Source of the DNA: Gammaproteobacteria bacterium
GTDB lineage: Bacteria > Pseudomonadota > Gammaproteobacteria > UBA4575
Reading direction: 5' to 3'
Length of the DNA: 64,000 nucleotides
Assembly: GCA_965222615.1 (NCBI GenBank)
Contig: CBDCUI010000009.1
Span: forward strand, 608,001 to 672,000
Both the position numbers and the translations under genes were made by a program. Under the pieces are notes generated by a model, which saw only the letters and a program-made list of their open reading frames with translations, had not been told where the DNA came from and did no database searches. Shown piece after piece: positions 30,630-59,418 of the stretch. Numbering within the stretch: position 1 is the first letter of the stretch; each line of letters starts with the position of its first letter.

Positions 30630-30922
30630 TCCGATAGCTTGGTGAAGTGGTGGGTCGCTTTTTTTAAAATCTCATTCTCTGCACGCAAACGTTCGTTCTC
30701 TTTACGCAGTTTCGTTAATTGCGCAGCTTCACCACTTTGTTGACCTTTACCAGGAAAGGAATCTTCGCCTTTAATGGCCAATTGCTCTTTCCATTTGTAT
30801 ATTTGATTGACGCGAATACCAAGTTCACGCGCCACTTGAGTGACTGATTGGTCACTTTCTTCCGCTAATCGAATCGCTTCTAACTTAAATTCTTTTGTGT
30901 ATTGACGATATTGTCGTGGCAT
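30626..30922 (-). CDS. IS3 transposase OrfA
   Basis: YTKEFKLEAI, HTH, ENEILKKA with A7 slippery run at 30659-30665; ATGA overlap with orfB. Confidence 0.93.
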   Translation of the reverse strand: MPRQYRQYTKEFKLEAIRLAEESDQSVTQVARELGIRVNQIYKWKEQLAIKGEDSFPGKGQQSGEAAQLTKLRKENERLRAENEILKKATHHFTKLSE

Positions 30923-32655: not shown

Positions 32656-32816
32656 GAATGCTTCTCCTCCCTTGAAGATTTAAGCCGGATCTTTCACGTA
32701 TTTACCCGGCCACGTACAGTCGATTGAATCTGATTTTTTTATATTTTTTATATACTGACTTTATGGGTCATAACATTTACTTAATGATCAATATAAAAGA
32801 ATAGCGCGTTATTCGT

Positions 32817-32856
32817 CCAAGACTTTGTTGTTATTGAACCCATAGGAGTTGACTAT
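32817..32856 (-). promoter_or_regulatory. LysR/CynR-type operator upstream of porin
   Basis: Gene strand ATAG-N7-CTAT-gggttca-ATAA-ca-ACAAAGTCTT. Confidence 0.75.
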
Positions 32857-33055
32857 AGTTCTAAGGAATGCACTGCAGATTTGATGACGGCAGCCAGGAT
32901 TTAAATGTAATTACAGCTTTTTCATCATTAGGGCATCATACTCATAATTTATGTGCCTAAATATAAAATTTACAATCAAATGAAGTCGATACTTCTGAAT
33001 CAATAACTCAATTTTGCAACTAACTTAAAAATTTAATCTACGGAAACACGCCAAT

Positions 33056-33940
33056 ATGACGCACCGTTTTTATATAGTTGATGTGTTTACTGAACAACCT
33101 TACACCGGAAACCCGCTTGCGGTTGTTGTTATGGCAAAATCACTATCAGACGAAACCATGCAAAAAATTGCAGCGGAGATGAATTTTTCTGAAACCACTT
33201 TCGTGGCAACAACACCAGAAGATAATGGTGGATATCGTGTGCGAATATTTACACCTGCACGAGAAATTGATTTTGCTGGACACCCAATTCTCGGTACAGC
33301 ACAAGTCATTCGCCAATATCTTACTAATGAATCAAGTTCACAAATATTATTAAATCTCTCTAAGAGTCTGATACCAGTTAACTTTGAACATTTCAGCAAT
33401 GAGAGTGAAGTTGCCTGGTTTCTTGCACCACCAATGAAACTTGGCAAGGAATCTGCTCGCGAGCCTGTCGCAACTGCACTTGATTTAGCACCTGATGACA
33501 TTGATATCAGAACACCAATACAAGTAGTTTCTGCAGGTACTTCGGCGATGATTGTTCCACTAAATACTATGCAAGCACTACAGCATAGCCAACTAAATTT
33601 AGAAAAATTTGCCGTTTTAGCTGCTGAAGGTTTTCCACCTTTAATATATCTTTTTTGCCAACAAACACATCACCCCGAGAATGATTTATGTGCAAGATTT
33701 TTCTTTGAGGCGCATGGAGTACGTGAAGATCCAGCAACCGGAAATGGCGCAGCCTTTCTTGGAGCATATCTGTTGAAACATCGTTATTTCTCTAAATCCG
33801 ATTTATCACTACGAATTGAACAAGGTTATGAAATTCACCGGCCATCGTTGGTGAGGTTACGTGCACGAATACAAAATGGAAGTAGTGATATACAGGTTGG
33901 CGGTCATGTCATTCCAACAGTGCAAGGTCAACTTCTTTAA
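33056..33940 (+). CDS. PhzF-family isomerase
   Basis: VDVFT..GNPLAV, NFSETTF, FAGHP, EDPATG. Confidence 0.92.
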   Translation: MTHRFYIVDVFTEQPYTGNPLAVVVMAKSLSDETMQKIAAEMNFSETTFVATTPEDNGGYRVRIFTPAREIDFAGHPILGTAQVIRQYLTNESSSQILLNLSKSLIPVNFEHFSNESEVAWFLAPPMKLGKESAREPVATALDLAPDDIDIRTPIQVVSAGTSAMIVPLNTMQALQHSQLNLEKFAVLAAEGFPPLIYLFCQQTHHPENDLCARFFFEAHGVREDPATGNGAAFLGAYLLKHRYFSKSDLSLRIEQGYEIHRPSLVRLRARIQNGSSDIQVGGHVIPTVQGQLL

Positions 33941-34208
33941 CACCGTTTTGAATACCAAGCAATGTCAAACACGATAAGAACCTATAGTACTTATACACAA
34001 CTTTACCTTATGCTAAATTTCATATTAATTGGAGTTTTACATACGCTAATTAAAATATATTTATTAAAGAATAAGTGCATGTATGACTCTTGACTGGTAA
34101 AATTTAACCTAGTTCAGATAGCAATTAGTAACTTAGAGTACAACCTATTTTTTTAGGTACTTTGATAAAATCAAGAGTAACGAGCAAGATAATATCTTGT
34201 AATAACTT

Positions 34209-35225
34209 GTGCTCATTTTAGGTTGGGAGATGATAGGAGGTGTAAGAATGTTTAAAAATAAAACGAACGGGTCCACCTTTTTTCTTGCATTAGGATTAAT
34301 TTTTCTTGTCCTCCCTTCAACTGGGCAAACTGGAGATAAGAATTTTGCGCCAACTATCGCATACCAAATGGTCGAGTTAGTACACGATGAAATTGAGCTA
34401 ATACGAAAACACAAACAAACGCCTGTTGATACACGTGCTAGTTTTCCTGTAGAACATGTTTTCCCCAGAGAAGTGTATTTCCAAGCCCTTACCTTACGAC
34501 AAAAGGCAGGGCGCCTTTGTCATGAAACCACTCAATTTTTATTAGCGCCTCCCGCTGCTGTACAGTTTTCGATTCCAAAAACAATCACTCCTGAAGACGT
34601 ATACGATATTGTCAATGACGCGTGGAGCCAAATTCGTTGTGCTAAGGCTGGCCTAAACATAAGTGAAGAAATCCAGCAATCGGCAAAACAAGGCACGGCT
34701 AAGACACTCACAGATGTGTTTAAGTCAATTGTTCAAGCGAATCGGCAGTTAAATTTAATATTAGAACAACCTATTGAACCAGGAGATGTATATGCCGTCG
34801 TTCAACATGCGAATGCGTATATAGTTGATATACTTGACAAATTAGCACCGGTGTGGAGTTTAACCGCACCCACACTTCCAGAGTATCAAGCAGGTAAAAG
34901 GCCCATCGATATCTACAAACAAATGCTAAAGAACTTCAGGATTATCGAACAAATATCAAAGGATTCTGGAATCGATATGCTGAGTTTAGGACCAGAAATA
35001 CAAACACCGATTACAACTACAGATGTTTTTGATTTGAGTTCTCTTATCCTTTCTGAACTAAGTTATTTTGCAACACAACTTGGCATAAATCGGATTTACA
35101 GATTGGAATCTCATCCTGACAAAGTTCCTTCTGATGTGTATCAGCAAGCACAAATTGTAGAGGCTCATCTAGAAATATTGGAGGGTTTTACCAAGAAGTA
35201 TCCGACTTGGACTAAATTAGAGTAA
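34209..35225 (+). CDS. Exported hypothetical protein with internal PxDVY helical repeats
   Basis: Signal-like TM; seven PxDVY/TDVF-type motifs; start uncertain. Confidence 0.7.
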   Translation: MLILGWEMIGGVRMFKNKTNGSTFFLALGLIFLVLPSTGQTGDKNFAPTIAYQMVELVHDEIELIRKHKQTPVDTRASFPVEHVFPREVYFQALTLRQKAGRLCHETTQFLLAPPAAVQFSIPKTITPEDVYDIVNDAWSQIRCAKAGLNISEEIQQSAKQGTAKTLTDVFKSIVQANRQLNLILEQPIEPGDVYAVVQHANAYIVDILDKLAPVWSLTAPTLPEYQAGKRPIDIYKQMLKNFRIIEQISKDSGIDMLSLGPEIQTPITTTDVFDLSSLILSELSYFATQLGINRIYRLESHPDKVPSDVYQQAQIVEAHLEILEGFTKKYPTWTKLE

Positions 35226-35358
35226 TATAACTTTTAGTTAAACAACAATTTAATTTTACTTTTGTATAAGAAAGCTTAATGCCATAAATCTAATTAGCTG
35301 ATAGTAAGCATGCGTGACTGAATATCTATCCATAGGGATCTAAACTAAAATCAGGTAT

Positions 35359-35739
35359 ATGGACAGCTATACCGTCTTAAAAAATATTCATATCGCGACT
35401 GTATTGATTTCAATTGCAGGATTTTTTTTACGCGGAATTTGGATGATGCAATCTTCTTCCAAACTACTACATCGTTGGACAAAAATTGCACCACATATTA
35501 ACGATACAATTTTACTATTATCTGCAATTGCCTTAGTTTTTATTACAGCTCAATATCCAGGGCCAACAACGTGGCTAAATACAAAAATTATAGCTTTAGT
35601 AGTCTATATAATATTAGGAACAATTGCTCTTAAGCGCGGCAAGACGATGAGAACACGTGTTATTGCATGGTGTCTAGCATTGATGACGTTTATATATATT
35701 ATTATGGTAGCAATCAACAAAAACTCTTTGCCAATTTAA
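35359..35739 (+). CDS. SirB2-family membrane protein
   Basis: LKNIH, IAPHINDTILLLSA, WLNTKIIALVVYIILG. Confidence 0.9.
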   Translation: MDSYTVLKNIHIATVLISIAGFFLRGIWMMQSSSKLLHRWTKIAPHINDTILLLSAIALVFITAQYPGPTTWLNTKIIALVVYIILGTIALKRGKTMRTRVIAWCLALMTFIYIIMVAINKNSLPI

Positions 35740-35870
35740 ACGTCGACAAAAACAGCGTATAACAAACTCGATAGATAGCTTGTACTAAACCTCCAGAAAA
35801 GTTTTTCGTAAAACTTGCTCTTATTACAACCTTTACAGCATCCCGTTAAGAAACTGTAACTATAAAAGCT

Positions 35871-36053
35871 TTAGTGACAAGGAAAACCTTGCGAATGGCG
35901 AATATCATGTGCCGCATTATGCATAGCTGCTGTGTTTACAAAACCCGCACCATACAAAATGACACAGCCAAGTAAAAACGCACATGCAATCTGCAACGGT
36001 TTCGAAATCGACCTTGTATGCAAAATAGTTTCAGTTGTAGTCTGATTCTGCAT
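35871..36053 (-). CDS. cbtB: Cobalt transporter subunit CbtB (copy at end of scn operon)
   Basis: TM followed by HNAAHDIRHSQGFPCH. Confidence 0.9.
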   Translation of the reverse strand: MQNQTTTETILHTRSISKPLQIACAFLLGCVILYGAGFVNTAAMHNAAHDIRHSQGFPCH

Positions 36054-36103
36054 ATTTACTCCTTACTTAAAAAAATTAAAAAATTCGATACACTTGTTGG
36101 ACA

Positions 36104-36946
36104 TCACGTATGGTGCCAACTAAAACGTTTAATGAGCATTGAACACGAACTATCTAAAATGTAACCCATTATTCCAATGGTTAGCACCATTGCGGTGAGG
36201 TGGTCATAGGATAAAGTTTCACGCGCATCTGCGATAGAGTAGCCTAGGCCTGAAGTCACACCCAAAAATTCTGCTGGGACAAGTACAATCCAAGCAACAC
36301 CAAGCGCAAGACGTACACCTGTCAGAATATCGAACATAATTGCAGGCAAAATAATTTGCGTGACCATATGCCAAGGCTTAGCCCCTAAATTACGCGCAAC
36401 TTTGAACCACGCAGGATCTACCTTGGCGAGCCCTGCAGCAGTTGCAAACACGATTGGCCATACTGCTGCAATTGCAATAAGAAATACGATTGCGCCATTC
36501 CAGGTAGTAAACACAATTACCGCAATCGGCTCCCAGGAAAGCGGGCTGATCATACGAATCAATTGAAATGGGGAGTTGCTTAGTTCTCGGAATATTTTGC
36601 TACGCCCTAGGAGAATACCGATCGGTACTCCAACGATGATAGCAATAAGTAATCCAATACCTAGTCGATAACCACTAGTTTTAACTGCTGCTTGGATCTT
36701 ACCTTCTGCCAATAATTCCGGAAATGCTTGGAACGTTGGAATAGGCCCGAAATCTTTAAAGTTTGTAGTATTGGGATTTATCTCAATTAAATAACCACCA
36801 ATCCACCAAAGCACAAATAAAATCGCAAGGCCCGCAGCCCAATTAAACAAGCTCCTACCCATCGACTTGGCAATAGCCGAGCTTTGAACAGCATTTATAG
36901 ATTCAATAGCACCTATTTCAGCTGTTTTATCAGTTCCATTACTCAA
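36104..36946 (-). CDS. Nitrate/sulfonate/cyanate-type ABC permease
   Basis: RMISPLSW, VARNLGA, GVAWIVLVPAE. Confidence 0.9.
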   Translation of the reverse strand: MSNGTDKTAEIGAIESINAVQSSAIAKSMGRSLFNWAAGLAILFVLWWIGGYLIEINPNTTNFKDFGPIPTFQAFPELLAEGKIQAAVKTSGYRLGIGLLIAIIVGVPIGILLGRSKIFRELSNSPFQLIRMISPLSWEPIAVIVFTTWNGAIVFLIAIAAVWPIVFATAAGLAKVDPAWFKVARNLGAKPWHMVTQIILPAIMFDILTGVRLALGVAWIVLVPAEFLGVTSGLGYSIADARETLSYDHLTAMVLTIGIMGYILDSSCSMLIKRFSWHHT

Positions 36947-38238
36947 AGCTCAAATACCTCGGTACGAATGTATGGATCACCTTCTTTGGGTACGCTAGCG
37001 TCGTTTCTCCATTTTGGATTCGCTTCAAGAGCGGTCTTGATAAAATCATAATTAACCAAGTCATCCGAAACATGTTCTGGAGTAAGCGTATCAAGAAACT
37101 TAGCGTCACCTGTAACCACAGTCTCTTTTAAGTCACTAACCACTAACTCGGTAGCAGATCTATATGGCCATGCTTGAAAATCGATGCGGTTTTGATCCCA
37201 TTCAGGATGTTTAATCGCAAGAGGATTTTGATAGTAAGCAGGATCGTAAAACATCATAGCCCTTTTCACTACTTCTTTCGGAACTGGCAAATACCCTTTA
37301 CCATCTTTAGAAAGTCGTTCAGCCATTGCCTCTCTATTTTCAGCAAGATGAATCTGAGCTTTTACTACAGCATTATGCACACCTTGTGCCCATGCAGCAC
37401 GATCAGGATCCATTGCATCTTCCTCATGCATAACAACGACACAACATGGATGTCCTTTCCATGCATCACCAGTGAAACGTAAAACTTTACCACCGGCTTT
37501 AAGCTCACCTAAAGCATTGAATGGTTCTGCCACGCAATAACCATCAATGGTTCCTGCTGCAAGCGCGGGTGGCATAGACGGTGGCGCCAATACTAAGAAA
37601 TTACACTCGTCGGGTTCGAGCTTGGCACTTTGCGGTTTAATCACCGGTTTAATCCCAGCCGCTTTCATAATTCTTTGGGATACGATGTTATGAATCGAAT
37701 ACCAATACGGTACTGCAAACTGTTTACCACCAAAATCTTTTGGCTCATTAATGCCGCTATTCTTACCGACAAGGACCGCAGAACCATTAGTATGATCCCA
37801 CGCCGTAATCTTAATTGGATATTTGTTGTTATAACGCATCCAAACTGGAATAGGGATTAACATGTGCGTAAGGTTGAAACGATGCGCGGCAAAGGCCTCT
37901 ACCAAAGGTGACCAACCACGAATAAGTGTAGGCTTAACCGACTCAAGACCTTCATCTTTAAAATAACCTTGGTCATGCGCGATCAACAAAGCTGCCGCAT
38001 CGGTAATGGGTATGTAACCGATTTTAATCACCGGATCCCATTTTTTCTTTGCTGCAAAAATAGGCATAGGCAATGAGCTCGCACCTCCCGCCAGTGCCGC
38101 GAGACCTCCTACTTGTAACAGTTCACGCCGGTTAATACCGGTACCTAAAACACCTTTAAAAAGTGGATCAAATTCTATAGCAAGTTTAGGATCATCATTT
38201 TGGATCCCATCACCATGTTTCTGGTAAATTTTCTTCAT
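36943..38238 (-). CDS. NrtA/CmpA/CynA-type ABC substrate-binding protein (Tat-like signal)
   Basis: INRRELL twin-Arg; IGYIPITDA, AVPYWYSIHN, VAEPFNA, HPCCV. Confidence 0.9.
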   Translation of the reverse strand: MKKIYQKHGDGIQNDDPKLAIEFDPLFKGVLGTGINRRELLQVGGLAALAGGASSLPMPIFAAKKKWDPVIKIGYIPITDAAALLIAHDQGYFKDEGLESVKPTLIRGWSPLVEAFAAHRFNLTHMLIPIPVWMRYNNKYPIKITAWDHTNGSAVLVGKNSGINEPKDFGGKQFAVPYWYSIHNIVSQRIMKAAGIKPVIKPQSAKLEPDECNFLVLAPPSMPPALAAGTIDGYCVAEPFNALGELKAGGKVLRFTGDAWKGHPCCVVVMHEEDAMDPDRAAWAQGVHNAVVKAQIHLAENREAMAERLSKDGKGYLPVPKEVVKRAMMFYDPAYYQNPLAIKHPEWDQNRIDFQAWPYRSATELVVSDLKETVVTGDAKFLDTLTPEHVSDDLVNYDFIKTALEANPKWRNDASVPKEGDPYIRTEVFEL

Positions 38239-38338
38239 AGCGGAATTCCTCTCATCGTTACTCTAAATAGTAGTTTCTCTTATCTAGTTTCTATCAACGT
38301 TAAAAAATCAAATGTACACTTAACTATCATTTTTTTAA

Positions 38339-39169
38339 TCAATTGCCAGCAAACTCGGCATTTGATGCAGAAGTATCCCCATTATCCATCTGGGCATTTT
38401 CTTTTGGCGCCCCCGCTGCATCGTGAAAAATTTGCATAAGGTGAGTACGCATTTTCTGAACTGCAGGATCTTGTCGATCACGTGGATCTGGAAGATCCAC
38501 TCTGAGATCATGAACCATCTTGCCGGGCGAACCGGCCATCACTAGCGCACGATCTGCCATGATTACTGCTTCGTCTATATCATGTGTCACCATGACTAAG
38601 TTAAAACCTAGCTGTTTAGAAATTGCGCGAACATCTTTTTGCAAAGATGCACGAGTAAACGCATCTAATGCAGAAAACGGTTCATCCAAAAGAAGCATTT
38701 CAGGCTCCATTACTAAAGAACGTGCTAAAGCTACTCGTTGTTGTTGCCCACCTGAGAGATCTTGAGTATTTTTTTTCGTATACTCTTCCATGTTAACCAA
38801 ACTAATTGCTTCGTTAACACGATCACGAATTTTATTTTTTGACCAACCAGCAAAACGTAATCCGGTACCGACATTTTGTTCAACCGTCATCCAGGGAAAT
38901 AGATGTGGAGCCTGAAACATCATCACCCATTTTGATGAAGGGTCTTTAACATCTTTATTATTTAACTGCACGGTACCACTGTAATTTCCCAACAAACCAG
39001 CGACGATGTGAAGTAAAGTGGACTTACCGCACCCGGAGCGACCGATAATGACAAGTGACTCACCGGGTTGTGCCTCCATATCCACTTTGTCAAAAGTAAG
39101 TGGACACTTTGAGTTATATCGGTGGGTAAGATCCTTTACATTAATATGTACACCATTGCGTTCTGCCAT
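38339..39169 (-). CDS. ABC transporter ATP-binding subunit
   Basis: GRSGCGKST, LSGGQQQR, LLLDEPFSALD; start set at ATG 39169. Confidence 0.92.
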   Translation of the reverse strand: MAERNGVHINVKDLTHRYNSKCPLTFDKVDMEAQPGESLVIIGRSGCGKSTLLHIVAGLLGNYSGTVQLNNKDVKDPSSKWVMMFQAPHLFPWMTVEQNVGTGLRFAGWSKNKIRDRVNEAISLVNMEEYTKKNTQDLSGGQQQRVALARSLVMEPEMLLLDEPFSALDAFTRASLQKDVRAISKQLGFNLVMVTHDIDEAVIMADRALVMAGSPGKMVHDLRVDLPDPRDRQDPAVQKMRTHLMQIFHDAAGAPKENAQMDNGDTSASNAEFAGN

Positions 39170-39334
39170 GTGTAATCCCTTCTGTAATATCGTAGTTTCG
39201 GACTGCCAACTACCTGGTTCAACGCTTAACCGGGAATTGAGCGCTCCCTTCAAACTGTGTTGATACATCAAGTAAGCTGCTCCATTCGACCTGTGTGGAT
39301 ATACTTGTTAATAAGACCGCTCTTTTTCATGAAA

Positions 39335-39697
39335 TTATTCAGCAATAATCTTGTCAGACCATTCAACGTCTTCAACAAAAGTATCAGGATTACCTGGTTG
39401 TGCACCTGCTTTTGCCATATCATCTTCTGTAACACCTCGTGCTCTTGAACATGCACCGCAACATTCAATTCGTACACCATTCTCAATAGCTTCATTCCAC
39501 TGCTCAGCCACCGAGGGCCACCCAAGTGGAACCATATTCTCACGAACCACTGGCCGTGCAAGACATACTGCTTCGCCTAGCAGAAATATTCGAATCTCAT
39601 GGCCCTTACCAGCCAATGCGTTAGCATGTCCAAACACCATCGCTGCTCGTGTTGGATCATCACTCCCCCATGATGACTTCATAAAAATCTTTGCCAT
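39335..39697 (-). CDS. DsrE/DsrF-like family protein
   Basis: DDPTRA, IFLLGEAV, CCGACSRARG (CxxC). Confidence 0.85.
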   Translation of the reverse strand: MAKIFMKSSWGSDDPTRAAMVFGHANALAGKGHEIRIFLLGEAVCLARPVVRENMVPLGWPSVAEQWNEAIENGVRIECCGACSRARGVTEDDMAKAGAQPGNPDTFVEDVEWSDKIIAE

Positions 39698-39791
39698 GAC
39701 TCCTTCCTAATTTTCACTACTTAGTTATTATTTTTTTATTAACCAAAACTTTTTTCTGGTCTGTCGATACAAATTCGAAGCAGGTTTTGTA

Positions 39792-40193
39792 TCACACCAT
39801 ATTGAGACGTTTATCAACCTCCTTTATACGACGCTTGAGTTCATCTTCATCAATAAGGCCTCTACGAATCATGGAATGGACCAGTGCTAATAGTTGCCGT
39901 TCTGGAAATGGGACATCTGCATAGTGATCTTCAGATAATTCATCTTCTTCCCAACGACGTTCTAGTGCCGGTAATGCACAAGCAACTTCAGATAAAACAT
40001 CACAGGTCGCTTCTAGCGTAATCTTCCAAGGTGGGTCAGGATTATCCACGCCATATTGTTCACATAAATCGCCCCAGACTCTTCCTTCCTTTTTAATTTC
40101 TTCAAGTAACGAAATTGGAGATTTATCCAAATTCCGATTTGTCATTTCTTCATCTAGTTTGATTTTCTCAGGATTGATTTCGACCATCATCAT
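39792..40193 (-). CDS. Thiocyanate hydrolase accessory/activator protein (P15K-like)
   Basis: Directly after scnC; LERRWEEDEL..Y..PFPERQLLALVHSMIRRGLIDEDEL resembles NHase beta-type accessory proteins. Confidence 0.75.
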   Translation of the reverse strand: MMMVEINPEKIKLDEEMTNRNLDKSPISLLEEIKKEGRVWGDLCEQYGVDNPDPPWKITLEATCDVLSEVACALPALERRWEEDELSEDHYADVPFPERQLLALVHSMIRRGLIDEDELKRRIKEVDKRLNMV

Positions 40194-40195
40194 TC

Positions 40196-40891
40196 CTAGT
40201 GTTTGTAAGGCTTAATGGCTTTTCGAATCGGTCGTGGGTCGTTTGTAGTCTTACCTGGTTTCGGTAACGCTACGCCAATTAAACAATCCCGTGTAACAAT
40301 TTCGGTTAATTGATCTTCAGTCCAACCCTCTGTTCCCTCAGGACGTACTGGCATCACAATAAACCGAGACTTCTGATTCGAGTCTTCAACTCTCACTTCA
40401 ACGTCTGCTGGAAGCTGCAAACCAAACTCTGCAAGTACTTGGCGCGGCCAGCGTACTAAGCGTCGTCGATAGTTCGGTGTTCGATACCACTCTGGAGATT
40501 GACCAAGAATCGGTCGTGGGTAACAGGAACACAGTGTACACACCACCACGTGATGTAGCTTCGGTGTATCCTCAAGAACACGTAAATTGCAATAATCACT
40601 AGGTGTACCAAACTTAGTAGGCATTTGATTAACCCAGTCGATACCTACTTCCAGACTGGCTTTAACACCGTCTTCCACAGCCAACTTTTTGAATTCAGGA
40701 TCCAACCATGCTTTGGCAACTAGACGCGCAGCAGGTGTTGGCCCCAGTGTGTGCATATATTCTGTCCACGCCTGATGATCTTCCGCAGTGAACAGACCTT
40801 TCTCAATAGCAAGTTCGCGAACCGCAATTTCAAGTATCTCAAACTCACTGACTTCATCCACCATTGGTGCGGGTTTATGCTTCTCTGCCAT
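40196..40891 (-). CDS. scnC: Thiocyanate hydrolase gamma subunit (Co-binding)
   Basis: VVCTLCSCYP Co-type claw motif; LGQSPEWYRTPNYRRRLVRWPR. Confidence 0.95.
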   Translation of the reverse strand: MAEKHKPAPMVDEVSEFEILEIAVRELAIEKGLFTAEDHQAWTEYMHTLGPTPAARLVAKAWLDPEFKKLAVEDGVKASLEVGIDWVNQMPTKFGTPSDYCNLRVLEDTPKLHHVVVCTLCSCYPRPILGQSPEWYRTPNYRRRLVRWPRQVLAEFGLQLPADVEVRVEDSNQKSRFIVMPVRPEGTEGWTEDQLTEIVTRDCLIGVALPKPGKTTNDPRPIRKAIKPYKH

Positions 40892-40949
40892 TTGTTCTTC
40901 CTCTTCTAATAATTAAGTTCTGATTGTTCTGCTGTATCGCTGTTGTTTT

Positions 40950-41318
40950 TTAAAGAGGCTCTAGCCATCGCTCGGGTAACTCAGTCTCTAAAGTATCGTT
41001 TGCAAATGTATCTGGATAATCCGGCCAAAGATCCTTTTGCTTGAATACCAAACTATAAAACCATTCAGGATTTTCCGTGTTATCCCAAGCCTCATCTTCT
41101 GCAGGAGGGCTTTCATAGACCAATGCAACAACAACTGCAGGAGCGCCACGTGTATAAGCTTGAGTGCGGGTATAAAAAATATCTGGCAGATCTCTGATAC
41201 GTACTTTATCGCCTACTTTAAATTTAGGTTTGCTAGCTTCACCTTTAAAGCATTGTGGATCACCTATTCCAGTAGCTTTTTTGACATGATGCTCTCTATC
41301 GTAATGTGGCTTACTCAT
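40950..41318 (-). CDS. scnA: Thiocyanate hydrolase alpha subunit
   Basis: ATGIGDPQCFKG, DLPDIFYTRT, FANDTLETELPERWLE resemble Thiobacillus ScnA as recalled; start at ATG 41318. Confidence 0.93.
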   Translation of the reverse strand: MSKPHYDREHHVKKATGIGDPQCFKGEASKPKFKVGDKVRIRDLPDIFYTRTQAYTRGAPAVVVALVYESPPAEDEAWDNTENPEWFYSLVFKQKDLWPDYPDTFANDTLETELPERWLEPL

Positions 41319-41742
41319 AACGTTTTTTAACCTCGTCAATCTTGTCCTGAAGTTCAGTAAGTGTGACGTATTGCTTATCAACTAATATCAATGCAGCGGT
41401 AAGCAACCACCGACCATAATAAGGAAGACCCAAATATTGCGTCTGACCTACATCTACGTTTTGGCGACGCCGTCTTTCCTCTGCATTCCAAACACCGCGC
41501 CAAGCTAAAACTTCACAAGTTACAAAGGTATTGTGTTCCCACACTTCCTCTTCCTTTTCTTCCCAAGGAATGGGCACATCTCGTTCACCGCCTACGTCAT
41601 GTGCTGCTCGTGTATAGGCACGATATTGTTCGTTAGTAACCTCATCGGGAGATGGGGCATGTGTTTCTTGATGCAACGCTGGCTGTAACAGACCGACAAG
41701 ATTAAGATGGCTTAGAACTCGATCTCTAGTAGAAGATGACAT
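41311..41742 (-). CDS. scnB: Thiocyanate hydrolase beta subunit
   Basis: QPALHQETHAP, HDVGGE, LAWRGVWNAEERRR, DVGQTQYLGLPYYGRWL resemble Thiobacillus ScnB as recalled. Confidence 0.93.
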   Translation of the reverse strand: MSSSTRDRVLSHLNLVGLLQPALHQETHAPSPDEVTNEQYRAYTRAAHDVGGERDVPIPWEEKEEEVWEHNTFVTCEVLAWRGVWNAEERRRRQNVDVGQTQYLGLPYYGRWLLTAALILVDKQYVTLTELQDKIDEVKKRYE

Positions 41743-41901
41743 GGCCTTGTACTCCTTCTTCCGATTATTTTTTTAAATAATTTTTGGCAAGTTGTCTTGC
41801 AGCTCAAGCGATACGCACTGTTTTAGAATTTGGTTATATACTTATTTTATAAGGTATTCACTTGACCTGATGACAAGTCTAATGGAGATGTGTTATTAAT
41901 C

Positions 41902-41941
41902 CCAAGACTTTGTATTTATAAATCCTATAGGAGTTACCTAT
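41902..41941 (-). promoter_or_regulatory. LysR/CynR-type operator between scnB and the LysR gene
   Basis: ATAG-N7-CTAT at 41927-41941 overlaps the LysR SD and start codon; followed on the scn strand by ATAA-at-ACAAAGTCTT. Confidence 0.8.
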
Positions 41942-42980
41942 GGATAGACGACATATCTTCCCGCGATCTCTTCAATATTTGATCGCAATTGCTGAACATG
42001 GCAGCTATACCCGTGCCGCCGAGGTATTACACGTCTCTCAGCCAACTTTATCGCAACAAATTAAGCAATTAGAAGGATCATTGGGATCGCCGCTATTAGA
42101 CCGTTCCGGTAGAACAGTACGCTTAACTGATGCCGGAAAAATTTATCTACATCATGTGCGTCGTGCTTGGGGCGAACTCGATGCAGGAACTCGCGCAATT
42201 AACGATGTGCAAGATTTAACCCGTGGCTTTTTGCGTTTGGGATGGACTCCAATCACCGACTACATGACTTGTTCCTTATTGGAAAACTTTAACAGTCGCT
42301 ATCCCGGCATCACATTAAGCACTTTGGAAATGCCTCAAGATGATATTGAAGTGGCCGTATCTGAAGCCCATATCGATGTCGGTATTGTTTTCAGTAAACC
42401 ATTTTCGCCTGAAGCAAGACCAACCGAAATTGTTACTGACATGTTGTTTAAAGAACCACTATGCGTTGCCGTAGGTAATGCACATCCTCTTGCTGGAAAG
42501 CAGGAAACCATGAGTGTAGAAGAACTTGGCGAAGAATCTTTGGTTTTACTCAATACTCACTTCGCGATGCGGCGCCACCTTGATCTGTATTGCCGCAATC
42601 AAGACATTTCACCGCGCATTGCAATCGAAACAAATTCTCTTAGCGTAATTATAGAACTGATTCAGCTCGGTGCACTTGCGACTATACTACCTATCAGTAT
42701 CATTCATTCACAGTATGGTCTTTATGCAATTAATGTTTCACCCGAAATACCACCTAAAGCAATCACCTTAATTTACCGTAAAGGTGCTTACAGAAGTCCA
42801 GCCTGTCTAGCTTTTTCAGAATTGGCTGCAGATTGGTCTGCGCGCAGACTTCAGGAAATTCCGATTCGAAGACGACTACCTTATCCACTACCTGAAAAAT
42901 ATTATCAAAACAAAAATCAACAAAATCCTAAAGAAGAGCCGTTGGCAAAGAAGGTGCAAAACATTATGAAAATAGATTGA
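41940..42980 (+). CDS. cynR: CynR-like LysR regulator
   Basis: AEHGSYTRAAEVLHVSQPTLSQQIKQLE, LDRSGRTVRLTDAG; divergent from scn, near cynS. Confidence 0.85.
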   Translation: MDRRHIFPRSLQYLIAIAEHGSYTRAAEVLHVSQPTLSQQIKQLEGSLGSPLLDRSGRTVRLTDAGKIYLHHVRRAWGELDAGTRAINDVQDLTRGFLRLGWTPITDYMTCSLLENFNSRYPGITLSTLEMPQDDIEVAVSEAHIDVGIVFSKPFSPEARPTEIVTDMLFKEPLCVAVGNAHPLAGKQETMSVEELGEESLVLLNTHFAMRRHLDLYCRNQDISPRIAIETNSLSVIIELIQLGALATILPISIIHSQYGLYAINVSPEIPPKAITLIYRKGAYRSPACLAFSELAADWSARRLQEIPIRRRLPYPLPEKYYQNKNQQNPKEEPLAKKVQNIMKID

Positions 42981-43014
42981 GATAATTGTTAGATACGCTA
43001 AACATTACACATGA

Positions 43015-44328
43015 TTATTTATTTGTAACCGCTACGTGAACTTCACCCTCTAAGACAGGCGGTAATGGCCCGCCCGTTGCCCAATCTAATAATTCAACAG
43101 TATGCACCACCGGTATTTTCGTAGCAGAGCCAATCTGTAACATACACCCTATATTACCTGCAGCAATGACATGTGGCGCACCAAGCTGCAGTGACTCAAC
43201 TTTACGCGCTCTTAACTGCTTTGAAATTTCGGGCTGCAAAAGGTTATAGGTACCAGCAGAACCACAACATGTGTGTGGATCTTTTGGTTCGAGTACAGTA
43301 AAACCCGCTGCTTTTAATAGCTTTTTTGGTGTAAACCTAATTCGCTGCCCAAATTGTAGTGAGCATGTGGCATGATAAGCCACGCGTAAATTGGGCATTG
43401 CCTTATAGTCCAAGTCGATTTTCGACAAAACTTCGGTAATGTCTTGAGCTAACGCAGAAATCGTCGCAGCATCTTGTGATAAATCACTATTTCGAAATAT
43501 CTCGACATAGTTTTTCACCATGACTCCACAGCCGCTAGCGTTGATCACCACTGCATCCAATCCTGCATCATTTACTTCTTTCATCCAGGCGCGAATGTTT
43601 TTCGCCGCCATCGCAAGACTTGGTTGAGACTTGCCCATATGGTAAGTCAACGCACCACAACAACTAGCGCCATCAGCAACGACCACTTCGCATCCATGAC
43701 GACGTAAAATGCGAATGGTTGCATTATTGATATTCGTATTCAGTGCCTTTTGCGCACAACCAGTCATCAAGACTACGCGACGCTTACATTCACCTTTTGC
43801 TGGAACAACTTGTGGTTCATCATTTGGGTTTGATGGCGATAACGTATTGGGCACCAACTCCAGCATTGCGCGCATTCTCTTGGGCAACGGACTGCTCGGC
43901 AATGACTTAGCTAATTGCCCCAAACGCATCATTATTCGCAAGCGTTTCGAGTAGGGCAAAATTTGTGCCAGGACCCAACGTTGGATGCGGTCAAATAGTG
44001 GGCGGTCATAGTTGTCCTCGATATATTCTCGGGCATGATCCACTAAATGCATATAGTTCACACTCGACGGACAGGTAGACATACACACTAAACAAGACAA
44101 GCAACGATCAATATGGTTGACGGTCTTTTTACTTGGCTCACCCCCATTCTCTAACATTTCCTTAATAAGATAAATGCGCCCACGTGGGCTATCAAATTCG
44201 TCTCCCAATAACTGATAAGTCGGACAGTTATTAATACAGTAACCACATTGCAAGCAGGCACTTAGCTCCACGTTAGACTGGGCCATAATAGGATTAGCCA
44301 GTTGTTCGGAAGTAAAATTGGTTTGCAT
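43015..44328 (-). CDS. glcF: Glycolate oxidase iron-sulfur subunit GlcF-like
   Basis: Two CxxCxxCxxxCP clusters, DSPRGRI, two CCG domains, GNIGC. Confidence 0.88.
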   Translation of the reverse strand: MQTNFTSEQLANPIMAQSNVELSACLQCGYCINNCPTYQLLGDEFDSPRGRIYLIKEMLENGGEPSKKTVNHIDRCLSCLVCMSTCPSSVNYMHLVDHAREYIEDNYDRPLFDRIQRWVLAQILPYSKRLRIMMRLGQLAKSLPSSPLPKRMRAMLELVPNTLSPSNPNDEPQVVPAKGECKRRVVLMTGCAQKALNTNINNATIRILRRHGCEVVVADGASCCGALTYHMGKSQPSLAMAAKNIRAWMKEVNDAGLDAVVINASGCGVMVKNYVEIFRNSDLSQDAATISALAQDITEVLSKIDLDYKAMPNLRVAYHATCSLQFGQRIRFTPKKLLKAAGFTVLEPKDPHTCCGSAGTYNLLQPEISKQLRARKVESLQLGAPHVIAAGNIGCMLQIGSATKIPVVHTVELLDWATGGPLPPVLEGEVHVAVTNK

Positions 44329-44526
44329 TGACCTATTCCATTTACTTATCAGAAAAACTTAACTTAACTATGAATTGTATTTTATAGCGCCACTTTAAAA
44401 AACTCATTTGACAAAATTTACAATCTATTTTTTCAACATTATTTAAAACTTTAAGAACAGATTCAAACCTATTAGCTATCGCTTAGGAAATAGAAACATT
44501 GGAGGAAACAACTAACTTTACACCCT

Positions 44527-44564
44527 ATTGTTAATCTCTATAGAGCTAATAAGAACAAAGTCTT
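44527..44564 (+). promoter_or_regulatory. LysR/CynR-type operator upstream of cynS
   Basis: ATTG-N7-CTAT-agagcta-ATAA-ga-ACAAAGTCTT. Confidence 0.75.
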
Positions 44565-44712
44565 TGATTTATACAGCCGTATCCCTAAAACTAGAATTAC
44601 CTGGCAAATTAGATTACTCAAATTTATTTAAATTTCCTCAAAAATAAATATTGGGATTGAGTTGCTATGTGATACCTGGCTATTGAAGATTACTTTTCAG
44701 CGAGGAGTCGAT

Positions 44713-45153
44713 ATGAATAAAGAAGAAATGACCGACTGCATTATTGCAGCAAAAAAAGCTAAAGGTCTCACCTGGGAAACCATTGCTCACAAAGTTGGTA
44801 AAGGCACAACCTGGGTAACCTCTGCTTGTTTAGGAATGAACAGCACCACTGAGGAAGTCGCAAAAAGCTTATGCGAAATTCTTGGGCTCGATGAAGATGT
44901 TTGTACAACATTACAAGAATATCCACACAAGGCATGGGACAAAACGATACCGCAAGATCCAGTAGTCTATCGATTTTATGAAATCGTTGGTGTCTATGGC
45001 GATACTATTAAAGAAATTATAGCTGAGAAGTTTGGGGATGGAATTATGAGTGCTATCGATTTTTCTATGGATATTGACAAAGAAGAAAACCCTAAAGGCG
45101 ATCGAGTGGTAATCACCATGAATGGTAAATTCTTAAAATATACTTCGTGGTAA
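44713..45153 (+). CDS. cynS: Cyanate hydratase (cyanase)
   Basis: DPVVYRFYE, EKFGDGIMSAIDF, GDRVVITMNGKFL; ATG 44713 behind GAGGAG. Confidence 0.96.
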   Translation: MNKEEMTDCIIAAKKAKGLTWETIAHKVGKGTTWVTSACLGMNSTTEEVAKSLCEILGLDEDVCTTLQEYPHKAWDKTIPQDPVVYRFYEIVGVYGDTIKEIIAEKFGDGIMSAIDFSMDIDKEENPKGDRVVITMNGKFLKYTSW

Positions 45154-45467
45154 TTGAACAAACGCTGATTTCTTTTTTTGAGCAAGTAGCTCAAAAAGAT
45201 ACAAGTCAATTAAACAAATTAAAACAAAATAAGTATTTCAGTGTAGAAAAGGAGCGCTGGTGTTTTACTTTGCCTGATTTATATGCCTTTCTGCGATTAC
45301 AAAATGATGACTTAAACGACATTGATTACCAACAATTTCGAAAATTAATTTTTAACAGTCCTATTAATCAAACCATTAAATCATATGGAGCTGAAATTAC
45401 GATTACAGACAATCAAACCAATGTCGATAAATCAAGCTATGCACTAGTCTGGAAAAGTATGAAATAA
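45147..45467 (+). CDS. Hypothetical protein overlapping cynS stop
   Basis: 106-aa ORF whose GTG start overlaps the cynS 3' end. Confidence 0.6.
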   Translation: MVIEQTLISFFEQVAQKDTSQLNKLKQNKYFSVEKERWCFTLPDLYAFLRLQNDDLNDIDYQQFRKLIFNSPINQTIKSYGAEITITDNQTNVDKSSYALVWKSMK

Positions 45468-45538
45468 GTTTTTATTTAATCTTAAGAATAAGTGAATTAA
45501 GCTCAAATTAATATTTTTCTCAGAACAGTTGACTATCA

Positions 45539-45808
45539 TTAATCCTCAGTACGACGTCGTTTGCTAGCATCTGCAAGATGCACAATTCCGTAAGAAATAC
45601 CAAAACCAATAAACAAAGATATTATAATCAAGACAATATTTGCTAAATTGATATCCCCGCCAAGTTTCGTATTCACATCAAAAATATTGGCTAAAATATT
45701 CATAGTCAGCAAAGCAATAAAAATACCTCCAAAAAAGAAAATGCGGAACGGCCTAGTGCCTGTTGTTATCACATCGACGACTATATCCCGCATTTTTCGT
45801 TTCATCAC
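45539..45808 (-). CDS. Small two-TM membrane protein
   Basis: Two hydrophobic segments with basic termini. Confidence 0.6.
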   Translation of the reverse strand: MMKRKMRDIVVDVITTGTRPFRIFFFGGIFIALLTMNILANIFDVNTKLGGDINLANIVLIIISLFIGFGISYGIVHLADASKRRRTED

Positions 45809-45923
45809 GTGTTTCGCTTTAACTCAAAAAACGTCTCCCGAAATATTATATTTATATTTACATGGTACAGTAATCGCTTATAAACCACATTTAGTAATCT
45901 AACAAGCGGCACTATTTTTACAT

Positions 45924-46706
45924 ATGTCCAACAAATTACAGAATACTAAAACTGATGTTCTACAGTTTGTTCATATCACAGATACTCATCTGCTGAATCA
46001 AGCAAATGAAACTTTTCATGGTTTAAATACAAAAAAAAATTTAGAGGCGGTTTTAAACCATTGTCAAATACGCTATCCAAACATAGATTTTTTGCTGTTT
46101 ACGGGTGATATTTCTCAAACAGGCGATGAGGCAAGTTATACAATCTTCAACTCAATAATACGCCAATATAAAATCCCCATTTACTGTATTCCAGGCAATC
46201 ACGACATCCCAAAATTTTTACAGCATATTATTCCAAGTTGTCCAAAGGAGACAATTAGAACGATTCAATTCGGTAAGTTTTCACTAATTTTATTAAACAG
46301 CTGGGTAGAAAACCAACACCACGGAATGATCTCTCAACATTGTCTGTTGGAATTAAAAAGTTTCCTGCAAAAAAATAGTGGACAATTTAATATTATAGCG
46401 ATTCATCACCCGCCCATAATAATTAACAGTAAGTGGCTTGATGAAATTGGCTTACAGAATAAAGCGGATTTTTTACAAGTCATTCATAAATATGCGCCAA
46501 ATTCATTACTGATATTTGGACATATTCATCAAGAAATCGACCAGCAGCAAGACTCACTGCGTTTCCTTTCTACACCATCTACCTGTCATCAATACAAAGC
46601 GAATTCTGAGTGCATGCAGTGTATTTTCACACCACCGCCTACATATCGATTTATAAAGCTAAACCCAACACATCATATTGAAACAAATCTTCATTATATT
46701 GAATAA
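45924..46706 (+). CDS. cpdA: CpdA-like cyclic-nucleotide phosphodiesterase
   Basis: ITDTHL, TGDISQ, PGNHD, HHPP, GHIHQ, TPSTCHQ. Confidence 0.85.
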   Translation: MSNKLQNTKTDVLQFVHITDTHLLNQANETFHGLNTKKNLEAVLNHCQIRYPNIDFLLFTGDISQTGDEASYTIFNSIIRQYKIPIYCIPGNHDIPKFLQHIIPSCPKETIRTIQFGKFSLILLNSWVENQHHGMISQHCLLELKSFLQKNSGQFNIIAIHHPPIIINSKWLDEIGLQNKADFLQVIHKYAPNSLLIFGHIHQEIDQQQDSLRFLSTPSTCHQYKANSECMQCIFTPPPTYRFIKLNPTHHIETNLHYIE

Positions 46707-46836
46707 GATAACCGCATGATTTAAACCAGAATCCTAACCCGTCTTCTACTGCCCACCATTAAAAACTTCTTGTCATAGCAGTCATTGACAAGACCTAGCA
46801 TATTTATGATCACAAGTAATAACGTAATTTCGATCT

Positions 46837-46874
46837 ATAGCCAATACCTATAGGTTTAATAAATACAAAGTATT
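46837..46874 (+). promoter_or_regulatory. LysR/CynR-type operator upstream of cbtBA
   Basis: ATAG-N7-CTAT-aggttta-ATAA-at-ACAAAGTATT. Confidence 0.75.
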
Positions 46875-47064
46875 CGGATTAATAAAACTTCTCCTTTAGA
46901 CTTAACCATTAGCTCAATTGAACAATCGATTAAATAAGTATATAAGCGAATTCTTAAATTTAACAGACAGCTCTTGATCTCAAAAAGTAAACAGATCTGC
47001 ATTTAGATTCGCGCCAAGATTTGTTTTAGATAATTTTAAGAATCAGAAGGAAGGAGAATTAGCG

Positions 47065-47262
47065 ATGAGTACAGTCAAAGAGGCAACCAGCTTGCTAACT
47101 CAAATCCAAACTGGTGAGATACCTTGGTCAACTATATATGCCGTTAGTGCAGCCATTCTCACTGGTGTATTCATTATTGCAGCCGTAGGTTTTGCTGGAC
47201 CAGAAGTTTTGCATAATGCTGCTCATGACATTCGTCATGGATTAGCTTTTCCTTGTCACTAA
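47065..47262 (+). CDS. cbtB: Cobalt transporter subunit CbtB
   Basis: TM followed by HNAAHDIRHGLAFPCH. Confidence 0.92.
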   Translation: MSTVKEATSLLTQIQTGEIPWSTIYAVSAAILTGVFIIAAVGFAGPEVLHNAAHDIRHGLAFPCH

Positions 47263-47283
47263 ACTTTTACAACCTCAATAACA

Positions 47284-47991
47284 ATGAAAACCTTTAATAG
47301 GATTTTTTTGTCGGCGCTATTTTCTGGTGTACTAGCCGGTCTAGTACTCGCAGGAATCCAACACTTTACCGTCATCCCAATGATTCTAGAAGCCGAAACC
47401 TATGAGACAACCGATACAAATGAAAATACAACTGCAATGAATCAAGAGGAAGAAGCCTGGGCACCTGAAGATGGTGCTGAAAGAACTTTTTATACGGCTA
47501 CGAATAGTATGATTGTTGGTATCGGGTTTGGTCTACTATTAGCAGCATGCTATGCATTTCGAGGCAGTGTTACTTGGGGCAAGGGCCTGTTATGGGGGCT
47601 TGCTGGTTTTGCCACATTTCACCTCGCGCCTTCTTTTGGTTTACCTCCAGAACTTCCTGGAGATGCTGCCGCTGGTTTGGAACAAAGACAAATTTGGTGG
47701 TTATTAACCGTAATTGTTACAGCAATGGGGCTTTGGATCATTGCTTTTCAACCAAAACATTATCTTAAATTATTCGGTGTAGCATTAATCATATTGCCGC
47801 ATATATTTGGTGCACCACAACCTGAAGTGCATGGAGGCTTAGCTCCGGAAGAGCTTAGAAATACTTTTATGTATACCTCTCTTGCTACAAACGCAATTTT
47901 CTGGATTGTGTTAGGAATGCTTAGCGCCTATTTTTACAATAGATTTGATAAACCTATAGAAAATACAGCAGTGAACGCTGCATTGAGTTAA
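47284..47991 (+). CDS. cbtA: Cobalt transporter subunit CbtA
   Basis: PMILEAETYE, WAPEDGAER, APSFGLPPELPG, PHIFGAP. Confidence 0.93.
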   Translation: MKTFNRIFLSALFSGVLAGLVLAGIQHFTVIPMILEAETYETTDTNENTTAMNQEEEAWAPEDGAERTFYTATNSMIVGIGFGLLLAACYAFRGSVTWGKGLLWGLAGFATFHLAPSFGLPPELPGDAAAGLEQRQIWWLLTVIVTAMGLWIIAFQPKHYLKLFGVALIILPHIFGAPQPEVHGGLAPEELRNTFMYTSLATNAIFWIVLGMLSAYFYNRFDKPIENTAVNAALS

Positions 47992-48213
47992 CTGAAAAAG
48001 AGTAATAAGAACAGATTTGAGTAGCTAGGTCTTTTATCTATTCAAGAATAAGAATATTCATTAGAGAACTAAATCTAGCTTTTTAAAATATTTGAAGAAA
48101 AATTATTTTCCCAATACTCAGAGCGTACTTGGTCTAAGTACGCATACGCACGCTAATTAAACAAAGGAGTTTAGTGTGGTAACAACTAGACTTCTTCATT
48201 AGCGAGAATAACT

Positions 48214-48228
48214 ATAGATAATAACTAT
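48214..48228. promoter_or_regulatory. Possible fifth LysR core site upstream of TonB receptor
   Basis: ATAG-ataataa-CTAT, lacking the downstream ACAAAGT box. Confidence 0.4.
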
Positions 48229-59070: not shown

Positions 59071-59418
59071 TCATTTACTGGTCTGCCTGACCAATACCAC
59101 TAGTTTCTGATAGCAGGGACCGATACTTTTAATTATCTCCTGCTGAGTCTTTGTCGACCGTAATATTTCCAGACATAACTCTTCCAAACTTCGCGCAGTA
59201 TTGGATATTTTATCTAAACCATAAGAACCTGCCGAACCGGCTAGTTTATGACTGTGAGTACGTAACAACTCTAAATGAGTCATTTCAAATGATCCATCAA
59301 TAATCTTTTGCCAATTTTCATCTAAAATAGCCAACTTTTTCGGTAACGAAGCAACATATTCTCGCTTGAGCTGGGAAATTTTTTGTTGCGCATCTGGTGA
59401 TAAGTTAGGCATTTTCAA
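59071..59418 (-). CDS. Hpt phosphotransfer protein
   Basis: HKLAGSAGSYG. Confidence 0.9.
   Translation of the reverse strand: MKMPNLSPDAQQKISQLKREYVASLPKKLAILDENWQKIIDGSFEMTHLELLRTHSHKLAGSAGSYGLDKISNTARSLEELCLEILRSTKTQQEIIKSIGPCYQKLVVLVRQTSK

Follow-up and report, generated by a model that had tools for sequence, protein, structure and literature searches.

The present study deals with a stretch of 64 kb from a single gammaproteobacterial genome (contig CBDCUI010000009.1; hereafter the window, to which all motif counts for this genome refer) and with a sequence motif that recurs there upstream of four transcription units, namely a thiocyanate hydrolase (scn) operon, a cyanase (cynS) unit, a predicted cobalt importer (cbtB-cbtA) and the gene of an outer-membrane protein. 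A gene for a LysR-type regulator of the CynR family (41940..42980, plus strand; 346 amino acids (aa); NCBIfam NF008416) lies among these units, and its product is the proposed binder of all four sites. Divergently from it runs the scn operon (36104..41742, minus strand), its extent being deduced from shared strand and short gaps between genes. The operon opens with scnB (41311-41742), scnA (40950-41381 as the listed open reading frame (ORF), the true start probably lying later) and scnC (40196-40891, thiocyanate hydrolase gamma), followed by orf133 (39792-40193), a candidate P15K-type activator gene whose product bears a faint likeness to the N-terminus of nitrile hydratase beta, and by a DsrE-like gene (39335-39697). 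It closes with the ATPase (38339-39271), binding protein (36943-38238) and permease (36104-36946) of a NitT/TauT-type ATP-binding cassette (ABC) importer, all of them on the minus strand. The three-subunit set of thiocyanate hydrolase is complete according to Pfam, with NHase_alpha on one ORF and NHase_beta_N and NHase_beta_C on separate ORFs, while the gamma subunit model TIGR03887 scored 392.7 bits against a cut-off of 291.45, and the same gene order recurs in related loci.

The other three units are shorter. The minus-strand gene at 31069-32655 encodes an outer-membrane protein of 528 aa that belongs to the alginate-export (AlgE-like) kind. This putative anion channel is called a porin here because of Atlas features (score 0.98; Alginate_exp clusters in 30/30 matches) and weak matches to Pfam PF13372, found in 8/8 orthologues (best E 2.9e-6); the match of the window protein itself (E 0.0046) fell below the cut-off. 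A profile search of this protein against PDB sequences returned nothing meaningful (best E 0.38, Rieske proteins). The cynS unit on the plus strand (44662..46706, extent again deduced) comprises cynS (44662-45153; NF002773 and TIGR00673 above their cut-offs), the conserved orf106 (45147-45467) and possibly the gene of a CpdA-like phosphoesterase (45924-46706). Further along the same strand, cbtB (47065-47262; Pfam CbtB) and cbtA (47284-47991; Pfam CbtA; TIGR02458 at 252 bits against a cut-off of 182.9) are predicted to encode a cobalt importer. No carbonic anhydrase (cynT) or CynX-type transporter was found among the window ORFs scanned.

The initial annotation had reported one motif of identical spacing on the coding strand upstream of these four units, and the exact pattern scan bears this out. 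The 38-nucleotide (nt) pattern ATWG-N7-CTAT-N7-ATAA-N2-ACAAAGTMTT has four exact matches in the window, all in the sense of the downstream gene, and none in 100 dinucleotide-preserving shuffles; allowing up to two mismatches added nothing to the four. The sites lie at 32819-32856 (minus strand, 164 nt before the porin ORF), 41904-41941 (minus strand, 162 nt before scnB), 44527-44564 (plus strand, 98 nt before the cynS ORF, whose true start is possibly further in) and 46837-46874 (plus strand, 191 nt before cbtB). The places given earlier were thus right, but on the minus strand they overran the motif by two bases (to 32817 and 41902), which correspond to a conserved GG that follows it. A T-N11-A inverted repeat (IR1) is present in all four, as ATAG-N7-CTAT in three and as ATTG-N7-CTAT at cynS, and the promoter elements of interest are the ATAG/CTAT half-sites and GTCTTGGAC.

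The four window sites served as the seed of a 46-nt matrix, which went through three rounds of refinement and was applied with a threshold of at least 18 bits. The porin site is the top-scoring one of the window (54.7 bits), followed by the scn site (42.8 bits, or 40.0 bits when the window does not contribute to the matrix), the cynS site (40.5 bits as a whole, of which the IR1 part gives 11.5 bits and the activation-site part 25.5 bits) and, as the weakest, the cbtB site (34.5 bits, falling to 29.1 bits without the window). Apart from these, nothing in the window reached 5 bits with the full matrix, the decoy maximum being 5.2. Besides, a matrix built from the 89 sites found outside the window (described below) recovered precisely the four window sites, at 29-53 bits, with no other match of at least 5 bits.

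Conservation of the motif in related loci

Related loci were obtained by one scan, with the window regulator as query, of a genome contig collection to which the genome of the window does not belong; the scan gave 80 loci. The 32 in which the regulator shares 51-70% identity with the window protein form the related set (labelled L0xx), drawn from Thioalkalivibrio, Thiogranum, Thioalkalispiraceae, Thiotrichales, Thiobacillaceae, Chromatiaceae, Ca. Thiodiazotropha and unclassified metagenome-assembled genomes. In all 31 loci (of the 32) that are long enough to judge the scn neighbourhood, scnBAC, the small ORF and the ABC importer adjoin the regulator. Reversed sequences, 42 loci with unrelated LysR genes (701 kb) and dinucleotide-preserving shuffles (n=100) served as decoys. 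A matrix scan of orthologous loci had been proposed together with the initial annotation, and over the window and the 32 related loci (653 kb) it gave 93 matches of at least 18 bits, 89 of them outside the window, against none in the same DNA reversed and none in the 42 unrelated LysR loci, even at 8 bits or more. An unseeded count of inverted repeats took in every one of the 256 possible four-base half-sites, spaced by 3-11 nt, in the 31 genomes other than that of the window. Within 330 nt before scnB, ATAG-N7-CTAT was the top inverted repeat, present in 26/31 genomes, the next best reaching 12/31, and it occurred in 12/310 control windows.

Nearly all matches (87/93) sit at most 460 nt upstream of a mapped gene and in its sense. 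By downstream gene, they precede scnB (45, about 12 of which are second, cynR-proximal sites), cbiM (13), a glcF-like gene (8), the alginate-export-like porin gene (7), cbtB/cbtA (5), an OprD-type porin gene (4), cynS (3), a DUF1348 gene (1) and a second cynR (1); the six matches without a mapped gene comprise three on cynR starts, one at a contig end and two weak ones. Counted by gene, the motif precedes scnB in 31/31 loci, orthologues of the alginate-export-like porin gene in 6/7 (the seventh being cut by the locus end), stand-alone cbtBA in 4/4 and the gene of the CbiM family (Pfam PF01891) in 13/14, the fourteenth again being cut. In nine further loci cbtA stands at the tail of the scn operon, so that no cobalt importer gene of these loci lies outside the scn operon without an operator of its own. 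Two unrelated importer families, CbtBA and CbiM, thus carry the operator in different lineages.

Several other features of these loci deserve mention. A lone CbiM-family gene replaces cbtBA in the Thiodiazotropha and Chromatiaceae loci (L014, L016, L019, L020, L022-L030 and L036; for example L014:14144-14845, minus strand), where it is often followed by cynS and a methyltransferase gene, and the CbiM operators score highest of all, with 57-68 bits in loci of the Thiodiazotropha type; in L020, which is from Chromatiaceae, the score is 31.3 bits. In the window, a GlcF-like iron-sulfur protein with CCG domains is encoded between the regulator and cynS (43015-44328, minus strand; NF008434, 426.7 bits), and no operator copy in the window is oriented towards its gene; elsewhere the glcF-like gene has its own operator in 8 loci and stands behind an operator-bearing OprD-type porin gene in 4 (L016, L019, L021-L023, L025-L029, L032 and L036). 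The order cynS-orf106(-cpdA) of the window is found in L012, L021 and L032 as well. No family match to orf106 was found in Pfam or NCBIfam, and it follows cynS or cynR in 11/32 loci, as a conserved unknown of the scn system. In addition, one locus holds a second, diverged scnB-scnA pair (46-52% identity; L011:13665-14670, minus strand) with its own operator at 33.7 bits.

Operator architecture and the CynR-family regulator

LysR-type promoters are described, in the parts of PMC5002191 consulted, as having a T-N11-A recognition site near -65, an activation site near -35, activation through a sliding dimer, and autorepression. The window sites share with this general architecture the T-N11-A dyad, a weaker second site that would abut the putative -35 region and a divergent regulator gene, the autoregulation of which is predicted here; particular to the present case is that four or five units in each genome share one operator type. 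At the scn site, IR1 (ATAG-N7-CTAT, 41927-41941) is followed by an IR2-like element, ATAA-N7-GTCT, which merges into a -35-like TTGGGA (41900-41905). The predicted core promoter of the operon (41870..41903, minus strand) contains this -35-like element and a -10-like TAGACT (41876-41881), which would place the transcription start near 41866-41870. The porin site continues into TTGGAC and a -10-like TATATT (32790-32795), with a promoter-like match at 32819-32790, and the cbtB site is followed by a -10-like TAGACT. Over the whole set, 71/93 sites have a -10-like TANNNT that begins between motif positions 60 and 64. This placement, together with the column match to the Escherichia coli cynT promoter given below, leads us to put IR1 near -65 and ATAA-N7-GTCT near -44, with TTGGAC/TGGACA as the probable -35 element. 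The information profile showed that the 7-nt spacers and the leaders vary freely across genera, the information being concentrated in the palindromic half-sites and in the block beside the -35 element. Altogether, the four sites are predicted to be conserved operator-promoter modules of the LysR type.

The scn site is also tied physically to the regulator gene, since that gene has its AGGAG Shine-Dalgarno sequence (41929-41933) and the A and T of its start codon ATG (41940-41942) within the site. The overlap of IR1 with the cynR ATG keeps its register in 27/31 loci (at most one mismatch in the 8 specified bases), 23 of them without any mismatch, and the inner AGGRG of IR1 serves as the Shine-Dalgarno sequence of the regulator. 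In Thiodiazotropha-type loci, the cynR-proximal copy retains IR1 without the promoter half, scnB being served by another, complete site that lies about 175 nt further on.

The operator of E. coli CynR, one of the closest known systems, has been footprinted with DNase and contains ATAA-n7-TTAT repeats centred at -66, -44 and -34 (Lamblin and Fuchs 1993/1994, as summarised in the parts of PMC5002191 consulted). A matrix derived from the scn loci gave a single match of at least -5 bits in the cyn locus of E. coli K-12 (1901-1946, plus strand, 20.0 bits), and this match begins at the R1 element of the footprinted operator. When the four window sites, two Thiodiazotropha sites, one Pseudomonas site and the E. 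coli operator are aligned without gaps, the positions A1, T2, A14, T15, G17, A23, T24, A26, A29, G34, T37 and T38 are invariant, and the TAGTCT of the E. coli cynT promoter shares its columns with TAGACT of the window; setting IR1 at -66 brings the E. coli start to about motif position 74. Both systems belong to the same curated protein family, have a divergent regulator gene whose 5' end lies under the operator, contain inverted repeats of 15 bp that enclose a 7-nt gap and are centred, in E. coli and by prediction here, near -66 and -44/-34, and include a cyanase gene among their known or predicted targets. They differ in the half-sites (ATAA/TTAT in E. coli but ATAG/CTAT here), in the position of IR1 (10 nt from the start codon in E. 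coli, on the start codon here), in the targets (the single operon cynTSX as opposed to four units, mainly concerned with thiocyanate hydrolase, cynS alone being common to both) and in the placement of the window regulator in a separate clade. The different half-sites, set against the collinear layout and the 20.0-bit match, indicate a variant of the E. coli operator and not the same operator.

These observations also bear on whether a transcription factor encoded outside the window might bind the motif instead. Such a factor has room to exist, given that 64 kb of the genome are visible and that regulators of the AraC, TetR and OmpR types are also encoded in the window itself, but the motif accompanies the CynR-like gene in all loci, commonly covers its start codon, is similar to the operator of the E. 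coli orthologue and is absent from the 42 unrelated LysR loci. We therefore regard another factor as very unlikely and the adjacent CynR-like protein as the probable ligand of the sites.

The regulator passes the CynR equivalog model NF008416 with 356.6 bits (cut-off 277), shares 45% identity with E. coli CynR and has the CynR effector domain as its best PDB match (2hxr/3hfu, E 5.9e-44). A tree of 43 rows gathers the 36 scn-linked regulators in a single clade (support 100/99) on a stem of 0.61 changes per column. The CynR proteins of E. coli, Streptomyces, Kitasatospora and Pseudomonas fall outside it, and their loci show the classical cynR-cynT-cynS layout. Because sequences were sampled by their likeness to the window protein, the tree speaks for the coherence of the clade and not for its completeness. 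Two tandem regulators of this clade occur in each of three genomes (L018:7609-8496 and 10001-10915; L021:10001-10912 and 11290-12201; L032:9882-10802 and 11114-12028), and in L021 and L032 one paralogue stands beside scnB and the other ahead of a glcF-cynS unit, an arrangement that could reflect a division of labour between two ligands.

The regulator may be an ordinary cyanate sensor like E. coli CynR, in which case the scn genes would ride on a cyanate response and thiocyanate would not be sensed at all. The equivalog match, the identity to E. coli CynR, which includes the effector domain, the presence of cyanase in the regulon and the collinearity of the operator with a cyanate-responsive one all speak for such a sensor. 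On the other hand, all 36 scn-linked regulators fall in one well-supported clade outside the CynR proteins linked to cynT-cynS, and scnBAC stands beside the regulator in every judgeable locus. Moreover, the products of thiocyanate hydrolase are given as carbonyl sulfide and ammonia, not cyanate, in the parts of PMC5328954 consulted, so cyanate would be an indirect signal. On balance a plain cyanate sensor is a conceivable reading that stays well short of probable.

Leader sequences, a lone dyad and the surrounding DNA

The likeness between the window promoters extends past the motif, the scn and cbtB leaders being identical at 84/119 positions after it. In L010, the regions upstream of scnB and cbtB are identical at 193/195 positions, which makes some of the sites recent copies (L010:9808-10002, minus strand, against L010:12879-13157, plus strand: a recent duplication of a whole operator-promoter-leader cassette). 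The leader likeness and the L010 identity together imply that the sites have spread at least partly by copying of whole promoter cassettes. Taken to its extreme, this would make the repeats mere products of descent, or of recognition by RNA polymerase alone, with no shared regulator behind them. We give that view little credence: across genera the half-sites and the block beside the -35 element are conserved while spacers and leaders are free to vary, IR1 alone is retained on the cynR start codon of Thiodiazotropha-type loci with no scn promoter after it, and the layout is that of a footprinted operator. Duplication accounts for the spread of the sites, not for their retention.

A second shared block lies some 55-70 nt past the motif in the scn (41834-41850, minus strand), cbtB (46930-46946, plus strand) and porin (32740-32756, minus strand) leaders, though not in that of cynS. 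It reads AAGTATATAA and stands inside ATAA-N7-ATAT at scn and porin, or ATTA-N7-ATAT at cbtB; loose relatives occur in L009, L011 and L012, and the block is neither a known RNA family nor a stable fold. It could be a further protein site within the transcribed leader. A riboswitch or other structured leader was considered as the cause of the shared leader blocks and ruled out, since an Rfam E-value scan of 30500-52500 returned two irrelevant weak matches and no cobalamin riboswitch, hence none in the cbtB leader, and the folding energies of the four leaders were ordinary when compared with shuffles (z -0.78 to 0.43).

The initial annotation had also listed a core-only copy of the motif before a TonB-dependent receptor gene (48338-50671). 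The sequence is indeed there, as a lone ATAG-N7-CTAT at 48214-48228 (plus strand), but it does not rise above chance and was not accepted into the system. In the window, ATAG-N7-CTAT occurs 6 times against 1.16 expected; three of these are full sites, and the remaining three dyads (starting at 23347, 48214 and 51395) are within the shuffle range, the largest shuffle count being 4. That the receptor gene could be a fifth member of the regulon, controlled through a recognition site only, draws some support from the existence of recognition-only copies, namely the cynR-proximal sites of Thiodiazotropha-type loci (IR1 without the activation half), and from mononucleotide shuffles, which give a mean of 0.22 matches at its score against 6 observed, 4 of them from full sites. 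Yet with a 17-nt sub-matrix the copy scored 15.3 and 13.5 bits, below the 16.3 bits reached in the reversed window, and an equally good copy (15.8 bits) lies inside a PepSY ORF (51393-51409). Furthermore, the dyad is without the C of the conserved CCTAT and has no activation half or TTGGAC downstream. The only match to the activation-site part nearby (48360-48384, 10.9 bits) falls within the receptor ORF and does not reach the decoy maximum of 13.4, and homologues of the receptor were found in none of the 32 related loci. Membership of the TonB receptor is accordingly improbable. A reading of the dyad as a Fur box finds no support either: 18 positions in the window agree with a Fur consensus in 14/19 bases or more, and the dyad is none of them.

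The block from scn through cyn and cbt to the TonB receptor is flanked by an IS3-type transposase pair (HTH_Tnp_1 and rve; 29766-30922, minus strand) and, on the right, by an IS30-like integrase gene (HTH_38 and rve; 52212-53198, plus strand), and the G+C content is 0.41-0.44 over 30-44 kb compared to 0.33-0.39 in the flanks. The flanking transposase and integrase genes and the shift in G+C suggest that the block is an acquired island. Elsewhere in the window, a Ras/Roc-type small GTPase gene (60934-61437) lies between the genes of a hybrid histidine kinase with an Hpt protein and of an OmpR-type response regulator (59071-62375, minus strand), a pairing uncommon in bacteria, and a 116-aa ORF (12907-13257, minus strand) beside a DUF938 protein gene matches Pfam HopJ with an E-value of 1.4e-48.

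A predicted regulon for thiocyanate use and cobalt import

The four sites are probably the operator-promoter modules of one regulon under the divergent CynR-family LysR regulator encoded at 41940-42980. The initial annotation had already read them as LysR operators and tied them to this CynR-like protein, and that reading gains support from the conservation of the motif, its spacing and its orientation in some thirty other sulfur bacteria, the overlap with the start codon, the collinearity with the E. coli operator and the recurrence of the operator before both CbtBA and CbiM importer genes.

Together with the recent copying of cassettes described above, several points weigh against this reading. 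The matrix was seeded with the window's own sites, which is why the unseeded count of inverted repeats was also run. The 93 matches are not independent, as 14/32 loci come from Ca. Thiodiazotropha and 2 more from symbionts of lucinid clams (Ctena), both of which branch within the Thiodiazotropha clade of the regulator tree, and the scan of the present genome spans 64 kb, so that the size of the regulon and the genome-wide number of matches are not given by it. Two of the window sites are imperfect: IR1 of the cynS site is degenerate (ATTG-N7-CTAT), its activation-site half being strong, and the cbtB site is without the TTGGAC block (TTCGGA instead, with GTATT). The exact -35 and -10 hexamers are not fixed by sequence alone, and Thiodiazotropha-type sites would suit an extended -10 element better. 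Finally, the initial annotation had treated cynS as a direct target, and the exact site in the window agrees with this, but elsewhere cynS has a direct site in only 2/15 loci that possess the gene; in the others it follows a motif-bearing gene (5), follows cynR (5), is without a site (1) or is cut (2).

In the mechanism that we propose, in which binding, start sites, activation and effector are all predictions, each module would consist of a high-affinity IR1 (T-N11-A), a 7-nt gap, a weaker IR2-like element merging with the -35-like TTGGAC/TGGACA, and a -10-like hexamer about 17-19 nt further on. Following the established LysR model, a tetramer of the regulator would occupy IR1 and the activation site, and a pseudohalide effector (thiocyanate and/or cyanate) would shift the promoter-proximal dimer so that RNA polymerase is recruited. 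The outer-membrane channel, scnBAC with the activator-like gene, the DsrE-like gene and the ABC importer, the cyanase and CbtBA would then be switched on jointly, with CbtBA supplying the cobalt needed by thiocyanate hydrolase. Because IR1 lies on the ribosome-binding site and start codon of the regulator gene, its occupancy at the scn site should at the same time hold down cynR transcription, and from the position of the site we thus predict that cynR is autorepressed.

Comparison with described scn clusters helps to place these findings. The clusters of Thiobacillus thioparus and Thioalkalivibrio thiocyanodenitrificans reported by Berben et al. (2017) have different cobalt uptake systems and resemble the present one in combining scnABC, a hypothetical gene, a NitT/TauT ABC transporter and a DsrE-like gene, with a cyanase, a methylase and a cobalt uptake gene nearby (PMC5328954, in the parts consulted). 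No regulator or operator of the scn genes is named in those parts, the only regulators mentioned being those of a thiocyanate dehydrogenase cluster (PMC5328954). Likewise, no description of a regulator or operator of scn genes was found in the literature searched, which covered titles and abstracts as well as parts of PMC5328954, PMC5458468 and PMC8061750. What the present analysis adds to the account of Berben et al. is a shared cis-element that links separate units.

A further parallel concerns the supply of the metal. The gene of NhlF is placed in the cobalt nitrile hydratase cluster, in the operon of the enzyme. NhlF of Rhodococcus is described as a Ni/Co permease in the part of PMC2667541 consulted. 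Both there and, by prediction, here, a cobalt importer is co-expressed with a non-corrin cobalt enzyme of the same superfamily; the difference is that the present units have separate promoters under one operator, and that the importer family is CbtBA or CbiM depending on the lineage.

The CynR/LysR architecture is therefore the known part of the system, while the half-site (G for A at the fourth base), the position of IR1 on the start codon, the separate clade and the content of the regulon are what differ here. We tentatively propose, at slightly less than an even chance, that the scn-linked CynR clade is a thiocyanate sensor that runs a pathway from the envelope to the cytoplasm (outer-membrane anion channel, ABC importer, enzyme with its maturation factor, and cyanase) and that also drives cobalt import by substrate. 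If so, the cobalt importer would respond to the substrate of the enzyme and not to the status of the metal. The coupling may have been selected repeatedly, given that different lineages recruited unrelated importers (CbtBA and CbiM), in part through the copying of promoter cassettes.

As far as the literature searched allows us to judge, this is the first concrete model for the regulation of thiocyanate hydrolase clusters, and it names a regulator, an operator, likely promoters and members of the regulon. Such clusters are central to the removal of thiocyanate from mine and coke-plant effluents and also occur in the symbionts of lucinid clams. The regulator and its promoters could be used as a pair in a biosensor for thiocyanate or cyanate, and the shared operator gives a working context to unstudied genes that carry it in other genomes or travel with the system, such as those of the alginate-export-like channel, the GlcF-like iron-sulfur protein and orf106. 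Overall, the presence of non-orthologous cobalt importers under the same operator points to a provisioning of the metal cofactor that would be driven by the substrate.

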